Assembly: GCF_048403405.1 (NCBI RefSeq) | Contig: NZ_CP183132.1 | Source of the DNA: Escherichia coli | GTDB taxonomy: Bacteria > Pseudomonadota > Gammaproteobacteria > Enterobacterales > Enterobacteriaceae | DNA length: 6,055 bases | Direction: 5' to 3' (one strand) | In this document: piece by piece, positions 1 to 6,055 of the stretch | Layout: each line of letters opens with the position of its first letter | How positions within the stretch are numbered: position 1 is the stretch's first letter | Program-made: the position numbers and the translations under genes | The notes under the pieces: generated by a model | The model's input: the letters and a program-made list of their open reading frames with translations, nothing else | Told to the model about the DNA's origin: nothing | Databases searched by the model: none

Positions 1-2
1 TC

Positions 3-31
3 TTGAGATCCTTTTTTTCTGCGCGTAATCT
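3..31 (+). promoter_or_regulatory. RNAII (primer RNA) promoter: -35 TTGAGA (3-8), 17-bp spacer, -10 TAATCT (26-31), TSS near 38-39
   Basis: Sequence tcTTGAGAtcctttttttctgcgcgTAATCTgctgcctGtaaac matches the ColE1/pMB1 RNAII promoter block. A second copy with its true upstream context lies at 5634..5662. Confidence 0.8.
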
Positions 32-38
32 GCTGCCT

Positions 39-145
39 GTAAACGAAAAAACCGCCTTGCAGGGCGGTTTGATCGAAGGTTAAGTCAGCTTGCAGACTGC
101 TTAACCAGGTAACTGTCTTATGCGAGACGAGTCACCAAAATTGTT
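39..145 (-). ncRNA. RNAI: RNAI antisense copy-number control RNA (~107 nt)
   Basis: The 5' end maps to the reverse complement of ccaaaattgtt (ColE1 ccaaatactgt -> ACAGUAUUUGG). A -35 TTGAAG (rc of 175-180) and -10 CTACAC (rc of 152-157) lie upstream on the minus strand. The 3' end is the stem aaaccgcc/ggcggttt (49-56/63-70) followed by U6 on the minus strand. A duplicate copy lies at 5670..5776. Confidence 0.75.
44..70 (-). terminator. RNAI intrinsic terminator (stem-loop I' plus U-tract)
   Basis: Minus strand reads aaaccgcc-cugcaa-ggcgguuu followed by uuuucg. This 8-bp GC-rich stem plus U-run is the same architecture as the ColE1 RNAI terminator. Confidence 0.7.
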
Positions 146-589
146 CTTCTAGTGTAGCCGCACTCCGGCAGCCACTTCAAGTACTCTCTAAATATCTCGC
201 ACATGACTTTTACCAATGGCTGCTGCCAGTGGCGCTTTGTGGTGTCTTTTCCGGGTTGGACCCAAGAGAACAGTTACCGGAGAAGGCGCAGCAGTCGGGC
301 TGAACGGGGGGTTCCTGCATACAGCCCAGCCCGGAGCGAACTGCCTAAGTCGCCCCGAGATACCAGAAGACGTGAGCTATGAGAAAGCGCCACGTGTCCC
401 GTAAGGGAGAAAGGCGGAAAAGGTATCCGGTAATCGATATGGCGGGAACGTGGGGGCGCAGGAGGGAGCGATTCACCGGAAACGGTGATGATCTTTAAGC
501 CACGTCGGGTTTCGCCACCGCTGGCGGATTTCATGGTTGAGCCGCAAGGCTCCCACAGATGCACCGAAAAAGTGTCTGTTTTGTGAAGT

Positions 590-630
590 CCGTCAGGGGG
601 GCGGAGCCTATGGAAAAAGCGCCTCCGGCG
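590..630 (+). other. ori: origin of leading-strand DNA synthesis (RNase H processing / RNA-DNA transition region), approximate
   Basis: Conserved block gtcaggggggcggagcctatggaaaaagcgcc about 555 nt downstream of the RNAII start, homologous to the pMB1 origin point region. Confidence 0.55.
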
Positions 631-869
631 CGGCCTTTCCCGGGGTTTCGTTTTTTGCGTACATGTTCTTTCCTGGTTTATCCCCGGGTTCTGTGGATAA
701 CAGGGTTAGCGTTTTTGAGAAAGGAGAGTCCGCTCGCCGCAGCCGAACGACCGAGCGTAGCGAGTCAGTGAGCGAGGAAGCGGAAGAGCGCCTGAACTGG
801 CATTTTCTCCTTACGCATCTGTGCGGCATTTCACACCGGACATGGCGCACTTTTCATACAATCCGCACT

Positions 870-950
870 GATGCCGAATGGTTAAGCCAGTATACACTCC
901 GCTATCGCTACGTGACTGGGTCAGGGCTTCGCCCCGACACCCCAAAGGTC
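870..950 (-). other. oriT: oriT / bom (basis of mobility) with nic region; nick expected on the minus strand within 883-900
   Basis: ttaagccagtatacactccgctatcgctacgtgactgggtca…gccccgacaccc is near-identical to the pBR322/ColE1 bom region, including the rc cggagtgtatactggcttaa nic-site block and the GC-rich inverted repeat. Confidence 0.75.
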
Positions 951-1035
951 AACGGCCTGACGCGCCCTGGCGGGCTTGTCTGCTCCCGGCATCCGCTCAC
1001 AGACAAGCTGTGACCGTCTCCGGGAGCTGCATGTG

Positions 1036-1227
1036 TCAGCGGTTTTCACCGTCATCCCCGAAGCGTGCGAGGCAACTGCGGTAAAGCTCATCGGCGTGGT
1101 CGTGAAGCGATTCACAGATGTCTGCCTGTTCATCCGCGTCCAGTTCGTTGAGCTTCTCCAGCAGCGTTAATGTCTGGCCTCTGATGAAGCGGGCCATGTT
1201 AAGGGCGGTTTTTTCCTGTTTGGTCAC
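1036..1227 (-). CDS. rop: Rop/Rom RNA one modulator, 63 aa, GTG start
   Basis: Translation VTKQEKTALNMARFIRGQTLTLLEKLNELDADEQADICESLHDHADELYRSCLARFGDDGENR is essentially identical to ColE1/pMB1 Rop. GTG at 1227-1225 is preceded by ggaggcatca (SD), as in pBR322. The 87-aa ORF in the ORF track (1036..1299) is an upstream in-frame extension. Confidence 0.95.
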   Translation of the reverse strand: MTKQEKTALNMARFIRGQTLTLLEKLNELDADEQADICESLHDHADELYRSCLARFGDDGENR

Positions 1228-1258
1228 TGATGCCTCCGTGTAAGGGGGGGTTCTGTTC

Positions 1259-1615
1259 ATGGGGGTAATGATACCGATGAAACGCGAGAGGATGCTCACG
1301 ATACGGGTTACTGATGATGAACATGCCCGGTTACTGGAACGCTGTGAGGGTAAACAACTGGCGGTATGGATGCGGCGGGTCTGCCTGGGTGAGCCGGTTG
1401 CCCGTTCCGGGAAGCTGCCGACACTGGCACCGCCGTTACTGCGTCAGCTGGCCGCCATCGGGAATAACCTTAACCAGACAGCGAGGAAGGTGAACAGCGG
1501 GCAGTGGTCTTCCGGTGACCGGGTTCAGGTGGTGGCCGCACTGATGGCCATCGGGGATGAGCTGCGCCGGCTGCGTCTGGCGGTCAGGGAACAGGGGGCG
1601 CGGGATGATAGTTAA
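1259..1615 (+). CDS. mbeC: MbeC/MobC-like relaxosome accessory protein (ribbon-helix-helix); alternative start ATG 1292 (MLTIRV…)
   Basis: MLTIRVTDDEHARLLERCEGKQLAVWMRRVCL… matches ColE1 MbeC, whose truncated 5' part is also retained in pBR322. ATG 1259 has aaggggggg 8 nt upstream. Stop TAA 1613-1615 overlaps the mbeA start. Confidence 0.8.
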   Translation: MGVMIPMKRERMLTIRVTDDEHARLLERCEGKQLAVWMRRVCLGEPVARSGKLPTLAPPLLRQLAAIGNNLNQTARKVNSGQWSSGDRVQVVAALMAIGDELRRLRLAVREQGARDDS

Positions 1616-3170
1616 GTTTCATGCCAGGGGAAAAGGTGGTGGCAGTGGTCCGGTTGATTACCTGCTGGGAAGGGAGCGTAACCGGGAAGGGGCAACGGTG
1701 CTTCAGGGGAATCCGGAAGAGGTCCGGGAACTCATCGATGCCACGCCATTTGCGAAGAAATACACGTCAGGTGTTCTGTCGTTCGCGGAGAAGGAGCTGC
1801 CGCCTGGAGGGCGTGAAAAAGTGATGGCGAGCTTTGAGCGTGTACTGATGCCCGGTCTCGAGAAAAATCAGTACAGCATCCTGTGGGTGGAGCACCAGGA
1901 CAAGGGACGGCTTGAGCTGAATTTTGTCATTCCGAACATGGAGCTACAGACCGGAAAACGCCTCCAGCCGTACTACGACCGGGCAGACAGGCCGAGAATT
2001 GATGCCTGGCAGACGCTGGTGAATCACCATTACGGTCTGCATGACCCCAACGCCCCGGAGAACCGCCGGACGCTGACCCTTCCTGATAACCTGCCGGAAA
2101 CGAAACAGGCGCTTGCTGAGGGCGTCACACGCGGGATAGACGCGCTTTACCATGCCGGAGAGATAAAAGGCCGTCAGGATGTGATTCAGGCGCTCACAGA
2201 GGCGGGGCTTGAAGTGGTCAGGGTGACGCGAAGCAGTATCAGCATTGCAGACCCGAACGGCGGGAGGAATATCAGACTGAAAGGAGCGTTTTATGAGCAA
2301 TCTTTTACAGACGGGCGCGGAGTTCGAGAAAAAGCTGAAAGAGAGAGCCGAATCTACAGAGAAAATGCTGAACGACGAGTTCAGGAAGCTCGAAGAATCT
2401 GTAAACAGGGAACTGACCTCAAACGAATCTTTAATCAGGAACGCTATCAACGACCATACAACAGCCCTGAAAGAACTGCTGGAGAGGTATCAGAAAACGA
2501 CCGTCGATACGATGGACGCGCACTGGAAAACCGTACTGAAAATGAGCGTGAAACGCTGGCTGTGGCTGATTATCGTCTCAGTACTGATGTTTGCCACGAC
2601 CGGGAGTCTGCTGTGGTACCAGGGCATGAAGATAAACGCGAATATGAATATTCTCCGCGAGCAGAAAGAGAGTCTGGAGAAGCTGAACGCGAAGACATGG
2701 GGCGTGCGTTATCACGAGGACAGCAACGGACGTTTTCTGGTGTTGCCGAAGGGGATGAAAGCCGAAACGAACTGGACGAAGGACAACGGCAAACTGAACG
2801 CAGTGAGACTGGTGCAGGAGTGACAGAGCATGACGGAGCTGGAAAGACATTTGCTGAACGCATTAGAGCAACTGCAACAGGACTATATGCAGCGGCTGAA
2901 CGAATGGGAGAACGCCTTCGTGGAATTGCAGAAAATGTTTTCGCTTACGCAACGGGACAACGCGATGCTGAACGGGCGAGTCATGCAGTTGAGTCAGCAG
3001 GTGCAGCACTTGAGCGAGCGGACAGAACGCTTGAGCCAGTTATACAGCGAGAACAGGAGATAAGGGATGAACGGCTGATGCAGGAACGCGAACATGAGTT
3101 ATCTCTGGAGCGGGAGCGTCAGCCGGAAATCCAGGAGCGGACACTGGATGGCCCTTCGCTGGGATGGTGA
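1605..3170 (+). CDS. mbeA: MbeA relaxase, MOB(HEN) family, 521 aa
   Basis: MIVKFHARGKGGGSGPVDYLLG… is the ColE1 MbeA N-terminus, with catalytic Tyr19 (1659-1661) and the H97-E104-N106 motif (VEHQDKGRLELNF). ATG 1605 is preceded by gggggcgcggg. The E/R-rich low-complexity C-terminal half is typical. The ORF track's 537-aa call (start 1557) is an upstream extension. Confidence 0.9.
   Translation: MIVKFHARGKGGGSGPVDYLLGRERNREGATVLQGNPEEVRELIDATPFAKKYTSGVLSFAEKELPPGGREKVMASFERVLMPGLEKNQYSILWVEHQDKGRLELNFVIPNMELQTGKRLQPYYDRADRPRIDAWQTLVNHHYGLHDPNAPENRRTLTLPDNLPETKQALAEGVTRGIDALYHAGEIKGRQDVIQALTEAGLEVVRVTRSSISIADPNGGRNIRLKGAFYEQSFTDGRGVREKAERESRIYRENAERRVQEARRICKQGTDLKRIFNQERYQRPYNSPERTAGEVSENDRRYDGRALENRTENERETLAVADYRLSTDVCHDRESAVVPGHEDKREYEYSPRAERESGEAEREDMGRALSRGQQRTFSGVAEGDESRNELDEGQRQTERSETGAGVTEHDGAGKTFAERIRATATGLYAAAERMGERLRGIAENVFAYATGQRDAERASHAVESAGAALERADRTLEPVIQREQEIRDERLMQEREHELSLERERQPEIQERTLDGPSLGW
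2293..2823 (+). CDS. mbeB: MbeB mobilisation protein, 176 aa, one TM segment; nested inside mbeA in a different frame
   Basis: MSNLLQTGAEFEKKLKERAE…WLWLIIVSVLMFATTGSLLWY… matches ColE1 MbeB. SD aaggag lies 6 nt upstream of ATG 2293. The gene sits entirely inside mbeA at +1 offset, the known ColE1 arrangement. Confidence 0.85.
   Translation: MSNLLQTGAEFEKKLKERAESTEKMLNDEFRKLEESVNRELTSNESLIRNAINDHTTALKELLERYQKTTVDTMDAHWKTVLKMSVKRWLWLIIVSVLMFATTGSLLWYQGMKINANMNILREQKESLEKLNAKTWGVRYHEDSNGRFLVLPKGMKAETNWTKDNGKLNAVRLVQE
2830..3063 (+). CDS. mbeD: MbeD mobilisation / entry-exclusion-like protein, 77 aa; nested inside mbeA
   Basis: MTELERHLLNALEQLQQDYMQRLNEWENAF… matches ColE1 MbeD. SD aggag lies 9-10 nt upstream. 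The gene starts 7 nt after the mbeB stop, in the same frame as mbeB. Confidence 0.8.
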   Translation: MTELERHLLNALEQLQQDYMQRLNEWENAFVELQKMFSLTQRDNAMLNGRVMQLSQQVQHLSERTERLSQLYSENRR

Positions 3171-3230
3171 AACCATGAAAAATGACGTGTTCAGTGGATT
3201 AAGGCGGGCTAATGTGGCCTGTAGCATCTG

Positions 3231-3248
3231 GTTGCATAGGTATTCATG
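3231..3248. promoter_or_regulatory. ARG box (ArgR binding site) of the cer-like accessory region
   Basis: gtTGCATaggtATTCAtg: 11 of 14 core positions match the TGAAT-W4-ATTCA ArgR consensus. It lies ~105 bp upstream of the XerC arm, the spacing seen in ColE1 cer. Confidence 0.5.
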
Positions 3249-3250
3249 CG

Positions 3251-3375
3251 GTTAAAATTTATCAGGTGCGATCGCGGCAGTTTTTCGGGTGGTTTGTTGC
3301 CATTTTTACCTGTCTGCTGCCGTGATCGCACCGAACGCGTTTTGGCGGTGCGTACAATGCGACGTTATGGTAAAT
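3251..3375. other. cer: cer-like multimer resolution site: accessory sequences plus XerC arm GGTGCGTACAA (3347-3357), 7-bp central region TGCGACG (3358-3364), XerD arm TTATGGTAAAT (3365-3375)
   Basis: Both arms are identical to the ColE1 cer XerC and XerD arms as I recall them. The upstream ~100 bp (…atcaggtgcgatcgcggcagtttttcgggtggtttgttgccatttttacctgtctgctgccgtgatcgcacc…) closely matches the ColE1 cer accessory sequence. It lies between mob and the cargo segment, as cer does in ColE1. Confidence 0.8.
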
Positions 3376-3459
3376 GGAGCGGATTTTCAGGAAGGAGTGA
3401 TACTAACAACTCGAACACTGTGCAAATAATGATTTTTTTAAAATATCGGTAACGATAAT

Positions 3460-3500
3460 AAATTATTTCGTTTTACGCCGGTAATAAATATAATGTAGTT
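3460..3500 (+). promoter_or_regulatory. candidate sigma70 promoter for the cargo operon: perfect -10 TATAAT at 3489-3494, AT-rich UP-like upstream, weak -35
   Basis: ataaaTATAATgtag sits ~50 bp upstream of the ORF A start. No good TTGACA is present at the 17-bp spacing. Alternative -10 tatata at 3505-3510. Confidence 0.35.
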
Positions 3501-3543
3501 TCAGTATATAAAAAAATATATGAGGTGTCTTGTGGGAGCTTTC

Positions 3544-4596
3544 ATGAATCTTCAACAACGTATAAATAAACTACCACAATTATCATCCAGTTTTTCATTT
3601 GGAAAAGATATTGATAATATTCATTCATTTATCTTTAACGAAACTTCTAAAGATAAAATTGAAGATTTACTAAGAAAATGGGTGTCAGGCAATCAGCCCT
3701 GTGTATTTGGTAAATTGGCAAGCAAGAAAATTAAAGGGCTTGATTTCCATTTATCTATTGTAAATAGCCCCCAACTATATAATGATGATGGTCATTTGTT
3801 TGATTTTTTGCGTAATGAAAGAGTTCGTTTTAAAGAACGCGCAAGAAGAGGAGAGGTCAGTGCGCATCTCATTTATTTTATTCATCCACAACTTGCCTTT
3901 GCTCGTCCATCAGAAGAGTTAGTGGACATACAAAAATATATTTGTTCGCTGCATATGCCAGAGTGCTATCCAATAAAAGAGGATGTTATTTATACTGAAA
4001 GCGTACCATTTCAGGATAAAGATGGGCTAAAAATATATAAGGCTGGTGTTAATGTTTTTTACTCTTCTGCTCATAGAACAAGAAATCATGATAGAAGAAT
4101 ACCAGGGGGAATACTTATTTCTGTAAATGCCCCGGGGCATTTTATGAGGCTGGCGATAGAAAAAGGTTTCTATAAAGATCAAGAACAAGCGTTAGCGGAT
4201 ATTCGTAACATGACTATTCAGTCTGTTGGTAAGGGTGGGTATTCACATCCGGAAGGGATTTCTACAACATGGCATTCAGAATCTAATTTGGATCGTTTTG
4301 GATGCCCAGTGCACACCGGTAATAGTTCTTATTACAGCGGTTTTTATCATACTGATGTATTAATTCCAGGAGAATTAACTAAGGATGAAAGATTGCTCCA
4401 TGAAATAGAAAATAGTGATCCAATGATCTTCAACTGGAATGTATTGTTTTATGTTTCATTAGAAGAGTTTCCTATAGATGATCCTTATTATGGAGAGTTT
4501 ATTGGTATTCCTGTAGATGATGCATCTATGTTTTTTAACTCCTTTCAACCAAGGAAATTTGAAAACAAACCCCTTTATGAGAAAGAGGATGATTAA
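3544..4596 (+). CDS. hypothetical cytoplasmic protein, 350 aa; no recognisable family; first gene of the cargo operon
   Basis: A 1.05-kb uninterrupted frame in ~30% GC DNA, where chance ORFs of this length are very unlikely. ATG 3544 has GGGAG (3534-3538) 5 nt upstream. The ORF track's start at 3520 has no SD. No signal peptide or TM segment. Stop TAA 4594-4596 lies 1 nt before the ORF B start. Confidence 0.8.
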   Translation: MNLQQRINKLPQLSSSFSFGKDIDNIHSFIFNETSKDKIEDLLRKWVSGNQPCVFGKLASKKIKGLDFHLSIVNSPQLYNDDGHLFDFLRNERVRFKERARRGEVSAHLIYFIHPQLAFARPSEELVDIQKYICSLHMPECYPIKEDVIYTESVPFQDKDGLKIYKAGVNVFYSSAHRTRNHDRRIPGGILISVNAPGHFMRLAIEKGFYKDQEQALADIRNMTIQSVGKGGYSHPEGISTTWHSESNLDRFGCPVHTGNSSYYSGFYHTDVLIPGELTKDERLLHEIENSDPMIFNWNVLFYVSLEEFPIDDPYYGEFIGIPVDDASMFFNSFQPRKFENKPLYEKEDD

Positions 4597-4597
4597 T

Positions 4598-5464
4598 ATG
4601 ATTAAAGGAATGCTTTTTGCTTTTTTAGCAGCGTTCTCATGGGGGGCAGCTATCGTAATGAGCAAAAAAGGAGTTGAAGAACTAGATGCCGGAGGGGTGT
4701 TTTTCTGGCAGATTTGTAGTGCAGTAATACTATCTTGGATAGTTCTTTTTATAAAAAGAAAAAAACTCCCATTAAACTCAAAAGCGATACTTGCTTATGC
4801 GACAGGCGTTTTTGAACCATTCTTAGCGTATACTTTTACACTCTACGGACTTTATTTTATTTCAGCAGGAAGCGCATCAATTATTTTTTCACTTGAATCA
4901 GTGTTTATATTGGTGTTGTCTGTTCTTATTTGCTCAGTTAAAATTAATTCCCCGCAATATTTTATATTGTTCCTTATAGGTGCAATTGTTGGCAGTATTT
5001 TGGTAGCCTTGCCAGACATCAGTAATGGATCGAATAATATTGTTGGATATTGTCTTGTTGTTGCCGGTGTGTTATCGGCAGCATTTTATGTTGTTATATC
5101 GTCTCGCCTTATTAAATCGTTTGAGCCTATCACATTATTGAGCGGACAGTTGACATTCTCCCTTATACTGTCATCGCTCTTTATTTTTATATCTAAATCA
5201 TCAATTTATCTTCCGTTGGAATCCGTGATTATTGTTTTTTCATCTGGAATATTACAATATTTTTTAGCTTTTTGTTTTTACTTGAACTCCTTGCGTTGGC
5301 TCCCAGTTCATTTGGCAGGGATAATGTTGTACTTTATTCCGCTAGTTGCATTATTTTTGTCATGGTTGTTTTTGGATGAACAATTCACATTCTTACAGGG
5401 GGTAGGATTTATTGTAACTGTGCTAAGTGTATATTTTCTTAACAGAAAATACTCAGAGGAGTAA
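4598..5464 (+). CDS. EamA/DMT-superfamily permease, 288 aa, ~10 TM helices (two EamA repeats)
   Basis: N-terminal LFAFLAAFSWGAAIVMSKK matches the EamA signature (…F.WG..F…K). About 10 hydrophobic spans alternate with short loops (e.g. GGVFFWQICSAVILSWIVLFI, IVGYCLVVAGVLSAAFYVVISS, LPVHLAGIMLYFIPLVALFLSWLFL). ATG 4598 has SD AAGAGGA 8 nt upstream (ATG 4589 is also possible) and is translationally coupled to ORF A. The ORF track's start at 4517 would overlap ORF A by 80 nt and is unlikely. Confidence 0.9.
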   Translation: MIKGMLFAFLAAFSWGAAIVMSKKGVEELDAGGVFFWQICSAVILSWIVLFIKRKKLPLNSKAILAYATGVFEPFLAYTFTLYGLYFISAGSASIIFSLESVFILVLSVLICSVKINSPQYFILFLIGAIVGSILVALPDISNGSNNIVGYCLVVAGVLSAAFYVVISSRLIKSFEPITLLSGQLTFSLILSSLFIFISKSSIYLPLESVIIVFSSGILQYFLAFCFYLNSLRWLPVHLAGIMLYFIPLVALFLSWLFLDEQFTFLQGVGFIVTVLSVYFLNRKYSEE

Positions 5465-5631
5465 CATTCTGTTCAGGATTGCCCCCCGGCCTCCATCGAT
5501 ACCGTGCCAAATGCACGTAAAAAACGGGAGCGTTTCTGGTGTCGGAATGTAACCAAGGGGGTCAGAGGCGCGCTAAAACGCTCTCAGGGGAGTCAAATAG
5601 AGACGTTTGTAACAAAAAGATCAAAGGATCC

Positions 5632-6055
5632 TCTTGAGATCCTTTTTTTCTGCGCGTAATCTGCTGCCTGTAAACGAAAAAACCGCCTTGCAGGGCGGTT
5701 TGATCGAAGGTTAAGTCAGCTTGCAGACTGCTTAACCAGGTAACTGTCTTATGCGAGACGAGTCACCAAAATTGTTCTTCTAGTGTAGCCGCACTCCGGC
5801 AGCCACTTCAAGTACTCTCTAAATATCTCGCACATGACTTTTACCAATGGCTGCTGCCAGTGGCGCTTTGTGGTGTCTTTTCCGGGTTGGACCCAAGAGA
5901 ACAGTTACCGGAGAAGGCGCAGCAGTCGGGCTGAACGGGGGGTTCCTGCATACAGCCCAGCCCGGAGCGAACTGCCTAAGTCGCCCCGAGATACCAGAAG
6001 ACGTGAGCTATGAGAAAGCGCCACGTGTCCCGTAAGGGAGAAAGGCGGAAAAGGT
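5632..6055. repeat. terminal redundancy: exact copy of 1..424 caused by reading past the circular junction; plasmid unit length 5631 bp
   Basis: 5632.. tcttgagatcctttttttctgcgcgtaatc… equals position 1 onward, through …aaggcggaaaaggt = 411..424. The ORF 5847..6035 duplicates 216..404. Confidence 0.95.

Follow-up and report, generated by a model that had tools for sequence, protein, structure and literature searches.

A cer-type Xer site with a seven-bp centre as a likely seam between backbone and cargo in a small ColE1-family plasmid of Escherichia coli

In cer-type sites, an XerC-binding and an XerD-binding arm of 11 bp each enclose a central region, and the XerC side has about 180 bp of accessory sequence, in which an ArgR box lies about 100 bp away from the core. 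According to the literature, ArgR and PepA together with these accessory sequences limit cer recombination to sites on one molecule, while XerC makes the Holliday junction and its resolution is independent of Xer. The central regions of plasmid Xer sites span 6–8 bp in reviews and primary papers; ColE1 (NC_001371) and pColK-K235 share the core GGTGCGTACAA-TTAAGGGA-TTATGGTAAAT, and the characterised NTP16 site is given as GGTGCGCGTAA-TGAGACG-TTATGGTAAAT in the supplement of Fournes et al. (NAR 2025, PMC11724359). Recombination at oriT and cer sites has been named as a force behind the evolution of ColE1 plasmids, the authors of PMC7315355 state that hybrid cer sites arise at this crossover, and in vivo recombination between cer and the NTP16 site nmr is reported by the title of a paper cited there. 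Here, we analysed a site of this type in a stretch of 6,055 nucleotides from E. coli (contig NZ_CP183132.1 of assembly GCF_048403405.1, hereafter the window). We consider it likely that the core of this site is a seam at which Xer has resolved joined plasmids between non-identical cer-like sites. The site and its plasmid are already catalogued and the Xer/oriT mosaic model is already published; no new mechanism is involved.

A cer-type site and its centre

The window is a circular molecule of 5,631 bp read beyond its own start (positions 1–424 recur at 5632–6055), and the plasmid is 100% identical to more than 100 PLSDB records, including NC_022662 from E. coli JJ1886; the hosts of these records are E. 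coli, Salmonella, Klebsiella and Shigella. Its RNAI (the sole match of an Rfam scan at gathering thresholds), rop and mbeC/A/B/D-type genes, with Rop, MobC, MbeB and MbeD among the products, and an identity of 84.6% to ColE1 over 3.4 kb assign it to the ColE1 family of small replicons. In BLAST comparisons this identity runs across 1–3375, ending on the final base of the XerD arm; the 2.2-kb region from 3376 to about 5614 is without a ColE1 counterpart, and matches resume at the RNAII promoter region near 5615. Two further PLSDB records, NZ_CP146562.1 (11,262 bp) and NZ_CP127313.1 (11,304 bp), are about twice 5,631 bp long and carry two copies of the cer region and/or the cargo; they could be real head-to-tail dimers or assembly artefacts.

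The segment 3223–3375 can be read as the cer-type multimer-resolution site of this ColE1-family plasmid (Table 1), presumably active in vivo. Both 11-bp arms of its core (3347–3375) match those of ColE1 at every position and in the cer arrangement, the accessory DNA is 91–94% identical to that of ColE1 (111/118 positions, or 94%, over 3229–3346), and the ArgR box is separated from the XerC arm by 114 bp, as compared with 113 bp in ColE1 and pUB2380. Over all 153 bp of the site, identity amounts to 91.5% with ColE1, 78% with ColA (whose sequence was taken from the published supplement, PMC11724359) and about 70% with ColE3, CloDF13, NTP16 and pJHCMW1; BLAST gave no match of CloDF13 to the window's cer region. 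Alignment to these known sites places the end of ColE1 homology at 3375. The first-pass annotation had described a ColE1-like left side and XerC arm together with a right side unlike ColE1, and both descriptions stand; the site itself is also confirmed, but it starts earlier than the proposed 3251, with the ArgR box already at 3233. The short segment 3176–3228, which separates mbeA from the ArgR box, could not be aligned with a 5,873-bp sister plasmid (L001) or with pKSB1_9E_3 (L009) and is one more short variable tract, at the accessory region's outer margin.

When both strands were scanned for Xer-like cores, this site alone was returned at six or fewer mismatches, against 0.15 expected in shuffles, and no second core was found in the plasmid, the other candidates having at least seven mismatches (two observed at seven or fewer, against 1.55 expected). 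The far end of the cargo is without an XerC/D site, so there is no two-site module, and the likeness to pdif modules suggested at first could not be upheld. Scans for promoters and terminators, run around the core and at the right end, yielded nothing beyond shuffle expectation except the known ori hairpins, and a literature search with the arm sequence retrieved chance primer matches only.

The centre, TGCGACG, had been contrasted with an 8-bp ColE1 centre, and the ColE1 sequence given for it was correct: TTAAGGGA is found in both ColE1 and pColK-K235. The accompanying view that a 7-bp spacer is unusual is contradicted by the 6–8 bp range in the literature and by the 7 bp of NTP16. In the part of the published list of Xer recombination sites (xrs) covered here (Fournes et al., PMC11724359), 27 unique sites of 29 bp stand against 13 of 30 bp; the exact 29-mer of the window (GGTGCGTACAATGCGACGTTATGGTAAAT) is present, TGCGACG is also joined to two other XerC arms, and NC_022662 (5,631 bp) is tabulated as having an xrs at 2821 (-), with accessory sequence of ArgR type. 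In PLSDB, a 40-base query spanning the core matched 154 records. With its 29-bp length and TGNGACG-type centre, the core belongs to the known 7-bp (NTP16 nmr-like) class, which is common. The site as a whole is a composite: its accessory sequence and XerC arm are of ColE1 type, its centre is of NTP16 type, and a short stub of ColE3 type follows on the XerD side.

In pMB1, the cer centre TTAAGG doubles as the -35 box of a rightward promoter of the EcoRI operon (PMC7315355). TGCGACG in place of the pMB1 centre removes this hexamer, and an exchange of centres could thus alter transcription into the cargo; the promoter scan found no convincing promoter at the core of the window. It is also conceivable, though we think it quite improbable, that sites with a 7-bp centre take a catalytic path unlike that of 8-bp cer, either by completing an XerD-side exchange or by escaping the accessory-protein filter like the 6-bp cer/parB 'type II' hybrid, and that this would drive the swapping of cargo among small enterobacterial plasmids. 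If true, the class would be unusually active in intermolecular or heterologous exchange, and the pUB2380 junction described below would be a natural trace of XerD-side exchange.

Exchange inside the core and how it may have arisen

The cleanest case of exchange is pUB2380 (NC_025013), in which a ColE1 core with TTAAGGGA is joined straight to the right flank of the window. Apart from an IS1294/aph(3')-Ia insertion after 5474, pUB2380 has 0 differences from the window over 3365–5475 and only 4 over 1–600, as against a divergence of about 7% over 600–3364; the accessions of its Rop, MobC, MbeB and MbeD are the same as those of ColE1. When pUB2380, ColE1 and the window were compared at informative positions, 322 consecutive sites of pUB2380, from 848 to 3364, were of ColE1 type, and the window type prevailed from 3376 onward, across the cargo and ori, as far as about 840. 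The crossover is therefore confined to the 11-bp XerD arm (3365–3375) or to its boundary with the centre. Among PLSDB records, the junction of a ColE1 core with this cargo occurs in pUB2380 only and the window-type junction in 137, which suggests that pUB2380 is probably the recombinant, with a window-type plasmid as one parent.

The second junction of pUB2380 falls at 840–848, or at 840–929 if a lone SNP at 848 is discounted; site 877 within this interval is a window-specific SNP, and TAAGCCAG lies nearby at 883–890, a region which we take to contain the oriT nic position CTGG/CTTA (after Varsaki et al. 2003). Either homologous recombination or relaxase action could have produced this junction. 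Its placement by a relaxase exactly at nic could not be demonstrated, since the ColE1-type SNP at 848 lies between junction and nic and 620–840 is error-prone. Over the latter segment, small deletions and substitutions private to the pUB2380 record are numerous in ori-oriT DNA that is otherwise conserved; they resemble errors of old sequencing and limit the mapping of the junction.

Three further plasmids share one side with a relative and switch in or next to the core. One (L015) follows ColE1 at 99.2% identity for 2.1 kb as far as the XerC arm, but has the TGCGACG centre and an unrelated right flank, the opposite outcome to pUB2380. Another (L041) has the ColE1 core and 1.2 kb of its right flank (85%) with an NTP16-like accessory region, its homology to ColE1 starting 22 bp left of the XerC arm, and L009 is identical to the window over 3262–3375 only, differing on both sides. 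Together with pUB2380, they point to the core as a mosaic seam, and site-specific exchange, presumably catalysed by XerCD, is the best explanation of the pUB2380 case. The pUB2380 comparison provides a natural case, resolved to the base, of exchange within a cer core and supports the published Xer/oriT model.

The loss of similarity at 3375 is by no means particular to ColE1. In PLSDB, 4,314 records match the cer region, and most of the sampled alignments stop at query base 205, which corresponds to 3375 of the window. Seven plasmids have a TGCGACG core but other cargo (among it restriction-modification genes, methyltransferases, a glycosyltransferase and an Abi protein), and all seven lose similarity to the window at 3375/3376. 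In PLSDB, the TGCGACG core adjoins at least eight unrelated right flanks; in the plasmids sampled, it occurs with four types of accessory sequence, and the TTAAGGGA centre with at least three accessory types and at least seven right flanks. A scan of genome contigs returned mostly vector or plasmid contamination in unrelated genomes and was of use solely for sampling flanks. The general boundary between conserved backbone and variable cargo in the family is thus the outer end of the XerD arm. Because the same break is seen in every comparison, the break against ColE1 is by itself no proof of recombination; the claim that it is the footprint of Xer recombination draws its support from the mosaic core and the pUB2380 exchange, not from the break. 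The related proposal that the cargo was captured through this site went too far, as the recombinant is pUB2380 and a capture in the window plasmid is neither dated nor proved.

Similarity of another kind continues past the arm. The first 21 bp to its right match the flank of ColE3/Col156-type sites (L007, L023, L032) at 18/21 positions (21/28 over 28 bp); other right flanks score 3–9/21 against these 21 bp, and the best match elsewhere in the window reaches 13/21. G+C falls to about 30% only at about 3400–3420, so that the AT-rich cargo noted at first is present beyond the XerD arm but does not begin at 3376. The AT-rich DNA starts about 30–45 bp to the right of the core, and one or more additional junctions not due to Xer are therefore present; neither the junction between cargo and ColE3-like stub nor the right-hand junction near 5470–5615 was made by Xer.

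In a plasmid dimer, ArgR, on its box at 3233–3247, and PepA would wrap both accessory regions together, XerC and XerD would occupy their 11-bp arms, and exchange of strands where these arms meet the 7-bp centre would convert dimers into monomers. Nearly all enterobacterial small plasmids have the same XerD arm and similar XerC arms, and therefore two different plasmids, once joined, would be resolvable by Xer between non-identical sites. The most likely route has two steps: two related plasmids would fuse, through homologous recombination in the ori/oriT/mob backbone or through a relaxase at oriT, and Xer would then resolve the heterodimer between its non-identical cer-like sites. The products would have the DNA left of the core from one parent and the DNA right of it from the other, which would make the core the seam between a rom-mob-cer backbone and a cargo-ori segment. 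This route respects the topological filter, and two junctions are expected from it, a variable one and one located precisely in the core, as in pUB2380. The retention of the centre with the left parent in pUB2380 could reflect an XerD-side exchange or a heteroduplex centre sorted by replication.

Several points weigh against this interpretation. The accessory-protein filter makes intermolecular Xer recombination rare, for which reason a prior joining step must be assumed, and the scan of both strands detected only the one Xer site in the plasmid. With their start about 30–45 bp past the core, the AT-rich genes must have been joined to the ColE3-like stub by another event, and the breakpoint of L009, which is window-identical over 3262–3375 only, lies within the accessory region, so that homologous exchange acts here too. 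Finally, XerC-only exchange followed by replication cannot leave the centre with the left parent, as in pUB2380, if the right parent had TGCGACG.

The boundary could instead have been drawn by selection: similarity would erode up to the last functional base because cer is kept intact, while the dispensable DNA to its right is replaced by rolling-circle events of IS91/IS1294, by transposition or by illegitimate recombination. IS91-family transposases adjoin the site or the cargo in L010, L015 and pUB2380, the 5,310-bp aph(3')-Ia plasmids have their cargo replaced between 3826 and 5475, at the IS1294 target GTTC, and both the start of AT-rich DNA at about 3404–3420 rather than 3376 and the single Xer site of the plasmid fit this explanation. 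Random replacement, however, predicts varied junction distances, and at least nine independent flanks diverge at 3376; it also leaves unexplained the reassortment of centre and left arm (L015 vs. ColE1), the left-side breaks with a common right flank (L041) and the switch of pUB2380 inside the core, and we regard selection as an unlikely explanation of the boundary.

Very unlikely, in our view, is RecA-dependent homologous recombination between related backbones as the only process, with the coincidence of breakpoints and core as a sampling effect. The backbones are 80–99% identical over kilobases, L009 has its breakpoint in accessory DNA at about 3262, and the second junction of pUB2380 lies in conserved ori-oriT DNA; however, the first one is located in an 11-bp island of identity, with the heterologous 7/8-bp centre to its left and no homology to its right, and crossovers spread uniformly over about 2.5 kb of homology would be expected there in roughly 0.5% of cases. 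Efficient RecA recombination needs a minimum of roughly 25 bp, and the island is shorter than that. Least credible of all is an origin of the 7-bp centre from the TTAAGGGA of ColE1 by local mutation or deletion, which would mean that the site is no hybrid. Identical arms and flanking accessory DNA with 94% identity would agree with such an origin, but the two centres are unequal in length and unlike at most positions, and TGCGACG is one base away from the TGAGACG of NTP16 and occurs with other XerC arms and in four families of accessory sequence. Exchange by Xer at the core remains the reading that we prefer.

Cargo and right-hand segment

The practical value of these results lies in annotation, since the site marks the seam between backbone and cargo in one of the small plasmids most often found in E. 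coli, Salmonella and Klebsiella; the cargo of the window is less well understood than its cer site. The features are listed in Table 1.

Table 1. Coordinates of the cer-type site, the cargo and associated features in the window
Feature	Coordinates	Strand	Remarks
cer-type Xer site	3223–3375	+	ArgR box, accessory DNA, XerC arm, 7-bp centre, XerD arm
cer accessory sequences, XerC side (mbeA end to XerC arm)	3171–3346	+	160/176 identical to ColE1
ArgR box TGCATAGGTATTCAT	3233–3247	+	Identical to ColE1 box
XerC-binding arm GGTGCGTACAA	3347–3357	+	11/11 match to ColE1 and ColK
Central (crossover) region TGCGACG, 7 bp	3358–3364	+	One base from NTP16 centre TGAGACG
XerD-binding arm TTATGGTAAAT	3365–3375	+	11/11 match to ColE1; crossover interval in the pUB2380/ColE1/window comparison
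Short G+C-normal stretch akin to ColE3/Col156-type XerD-side flank	3376–3403	+	18/21 (21/28) matches
AT-rich two-gene cargo	3404–5470	+	G+C 0.28–0.41
CDS, 350 aa, no known family	3544–4596	+	Limits from pUB2380 and pS159-4 annotation
CDS, EamA/DMT transporter	4589–5464	+	Pfam EamA E = 4.6e-44; limits from pUB2380/pS159-4 annotation
130-bp cargo-to-replicon (RNAII promoter) segment	5474–5602	+	94.6% identical to IncF intergenic DNA, e.g., pTW14425_123.7k
Interval with second pUB2380 junction, oriT region	840–929	.	Last window-like site 840; first ColE1-like 848, 877, 929

The 350-aa protein encoded by the first cargo gene had no Pfam, NCBIfam, PADLOC or PDB sequence match. Copies of the gene pair with about 73% identity were found in three other contexts (L045 4743–6679, L047 and L051), namely a 6.7-kb Salmonella plasmid of ColE2 type (PF03090 Rep, MobA/L), a 43-kb E. 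coli contig with toxin-antitoxin genes and a chromosomal setting resembling grxA-ybjM-ybjL; the pair therefore behaves as a mobile cassette. In L045, it lies next to the plasmid's own Xer site (GGTACGCGTAA-cgggtg-TTATGGTAAAT at 4399–4426 (-)), on the side of the accessory sequence. A direct origin of the cargo from the ColE2-type plasmid was considered and rejected, as this position on the accessory-sequence side amounts to another arrangement and the homology is limited to the two genes.

Directly after the cargo stands GTTC (5471–5474), which we take to be a target of the IS91 family. In pUB2380 (L002 5402–8411), IS1294 and aph(3')-Ia are inserted right after it, and the 5,310-bp aph(3')-Ia plasmids (L003) keep 1–3826 and 5475–5631 of the window and have 3827–5474 replaced, a structure that suggests one-ended events mediated by IS1294. 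Elements of the IS91 family often lie nearby and clearly remodel the cargo.

Comparison with known systems

Among described sites, ColE1 cer, ColK ckr and pMB1 cer are the closest, sharing with the window the XerC and XerD arms, the ArgR box and its spacing, the accessory DNA (94%) and the position after mbeA and before the cargo; ColE1 cer differs in its 8-bp TTAAGGGA centre and in an unrelated right flank. The nmr site of NTP16 has the same XerD arm, a 7-bp centre one base off and GCGTTTTGGC directly left of the XerC arm, whereas its XerC arm is GGTGCGCGTAA and its accessory sequence is only about 69% identical to that of the window. The ColE3/ColE2 (Col156-type) site agrees in both arms and in 18/21 bp right of the XerD arm, and departs from the window in a 6-bp centre (CGGGAG), another accessory sequence and a flank that runs into the rep gene. 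With pUB2380, the cargo and ori segment is held in common, while the rom-mob-cer left part and the centre of pUB2380 are of ColE1 type and IS1294/aph(3')-Ia follows the equivalent of 5474.

Recombination at Xer and oriT sites has reportedly shaped ColE1-plasmid evolution, in work by Tran from 2012 on qnrB19 plasmids and by Zakharova from 2002 on pECL18/pKPN2. The present case resembles that model in that one junction is at a single cer-like site and the other in the oriT/ori region, and differs from it in that the second junction of pUB2380 cannot be placed at nic with certainty. Acinetobacter pdif modules likewise have XerC/D sites at their borders, but two such sites flank the module there, as compared with one in the window plasmid.
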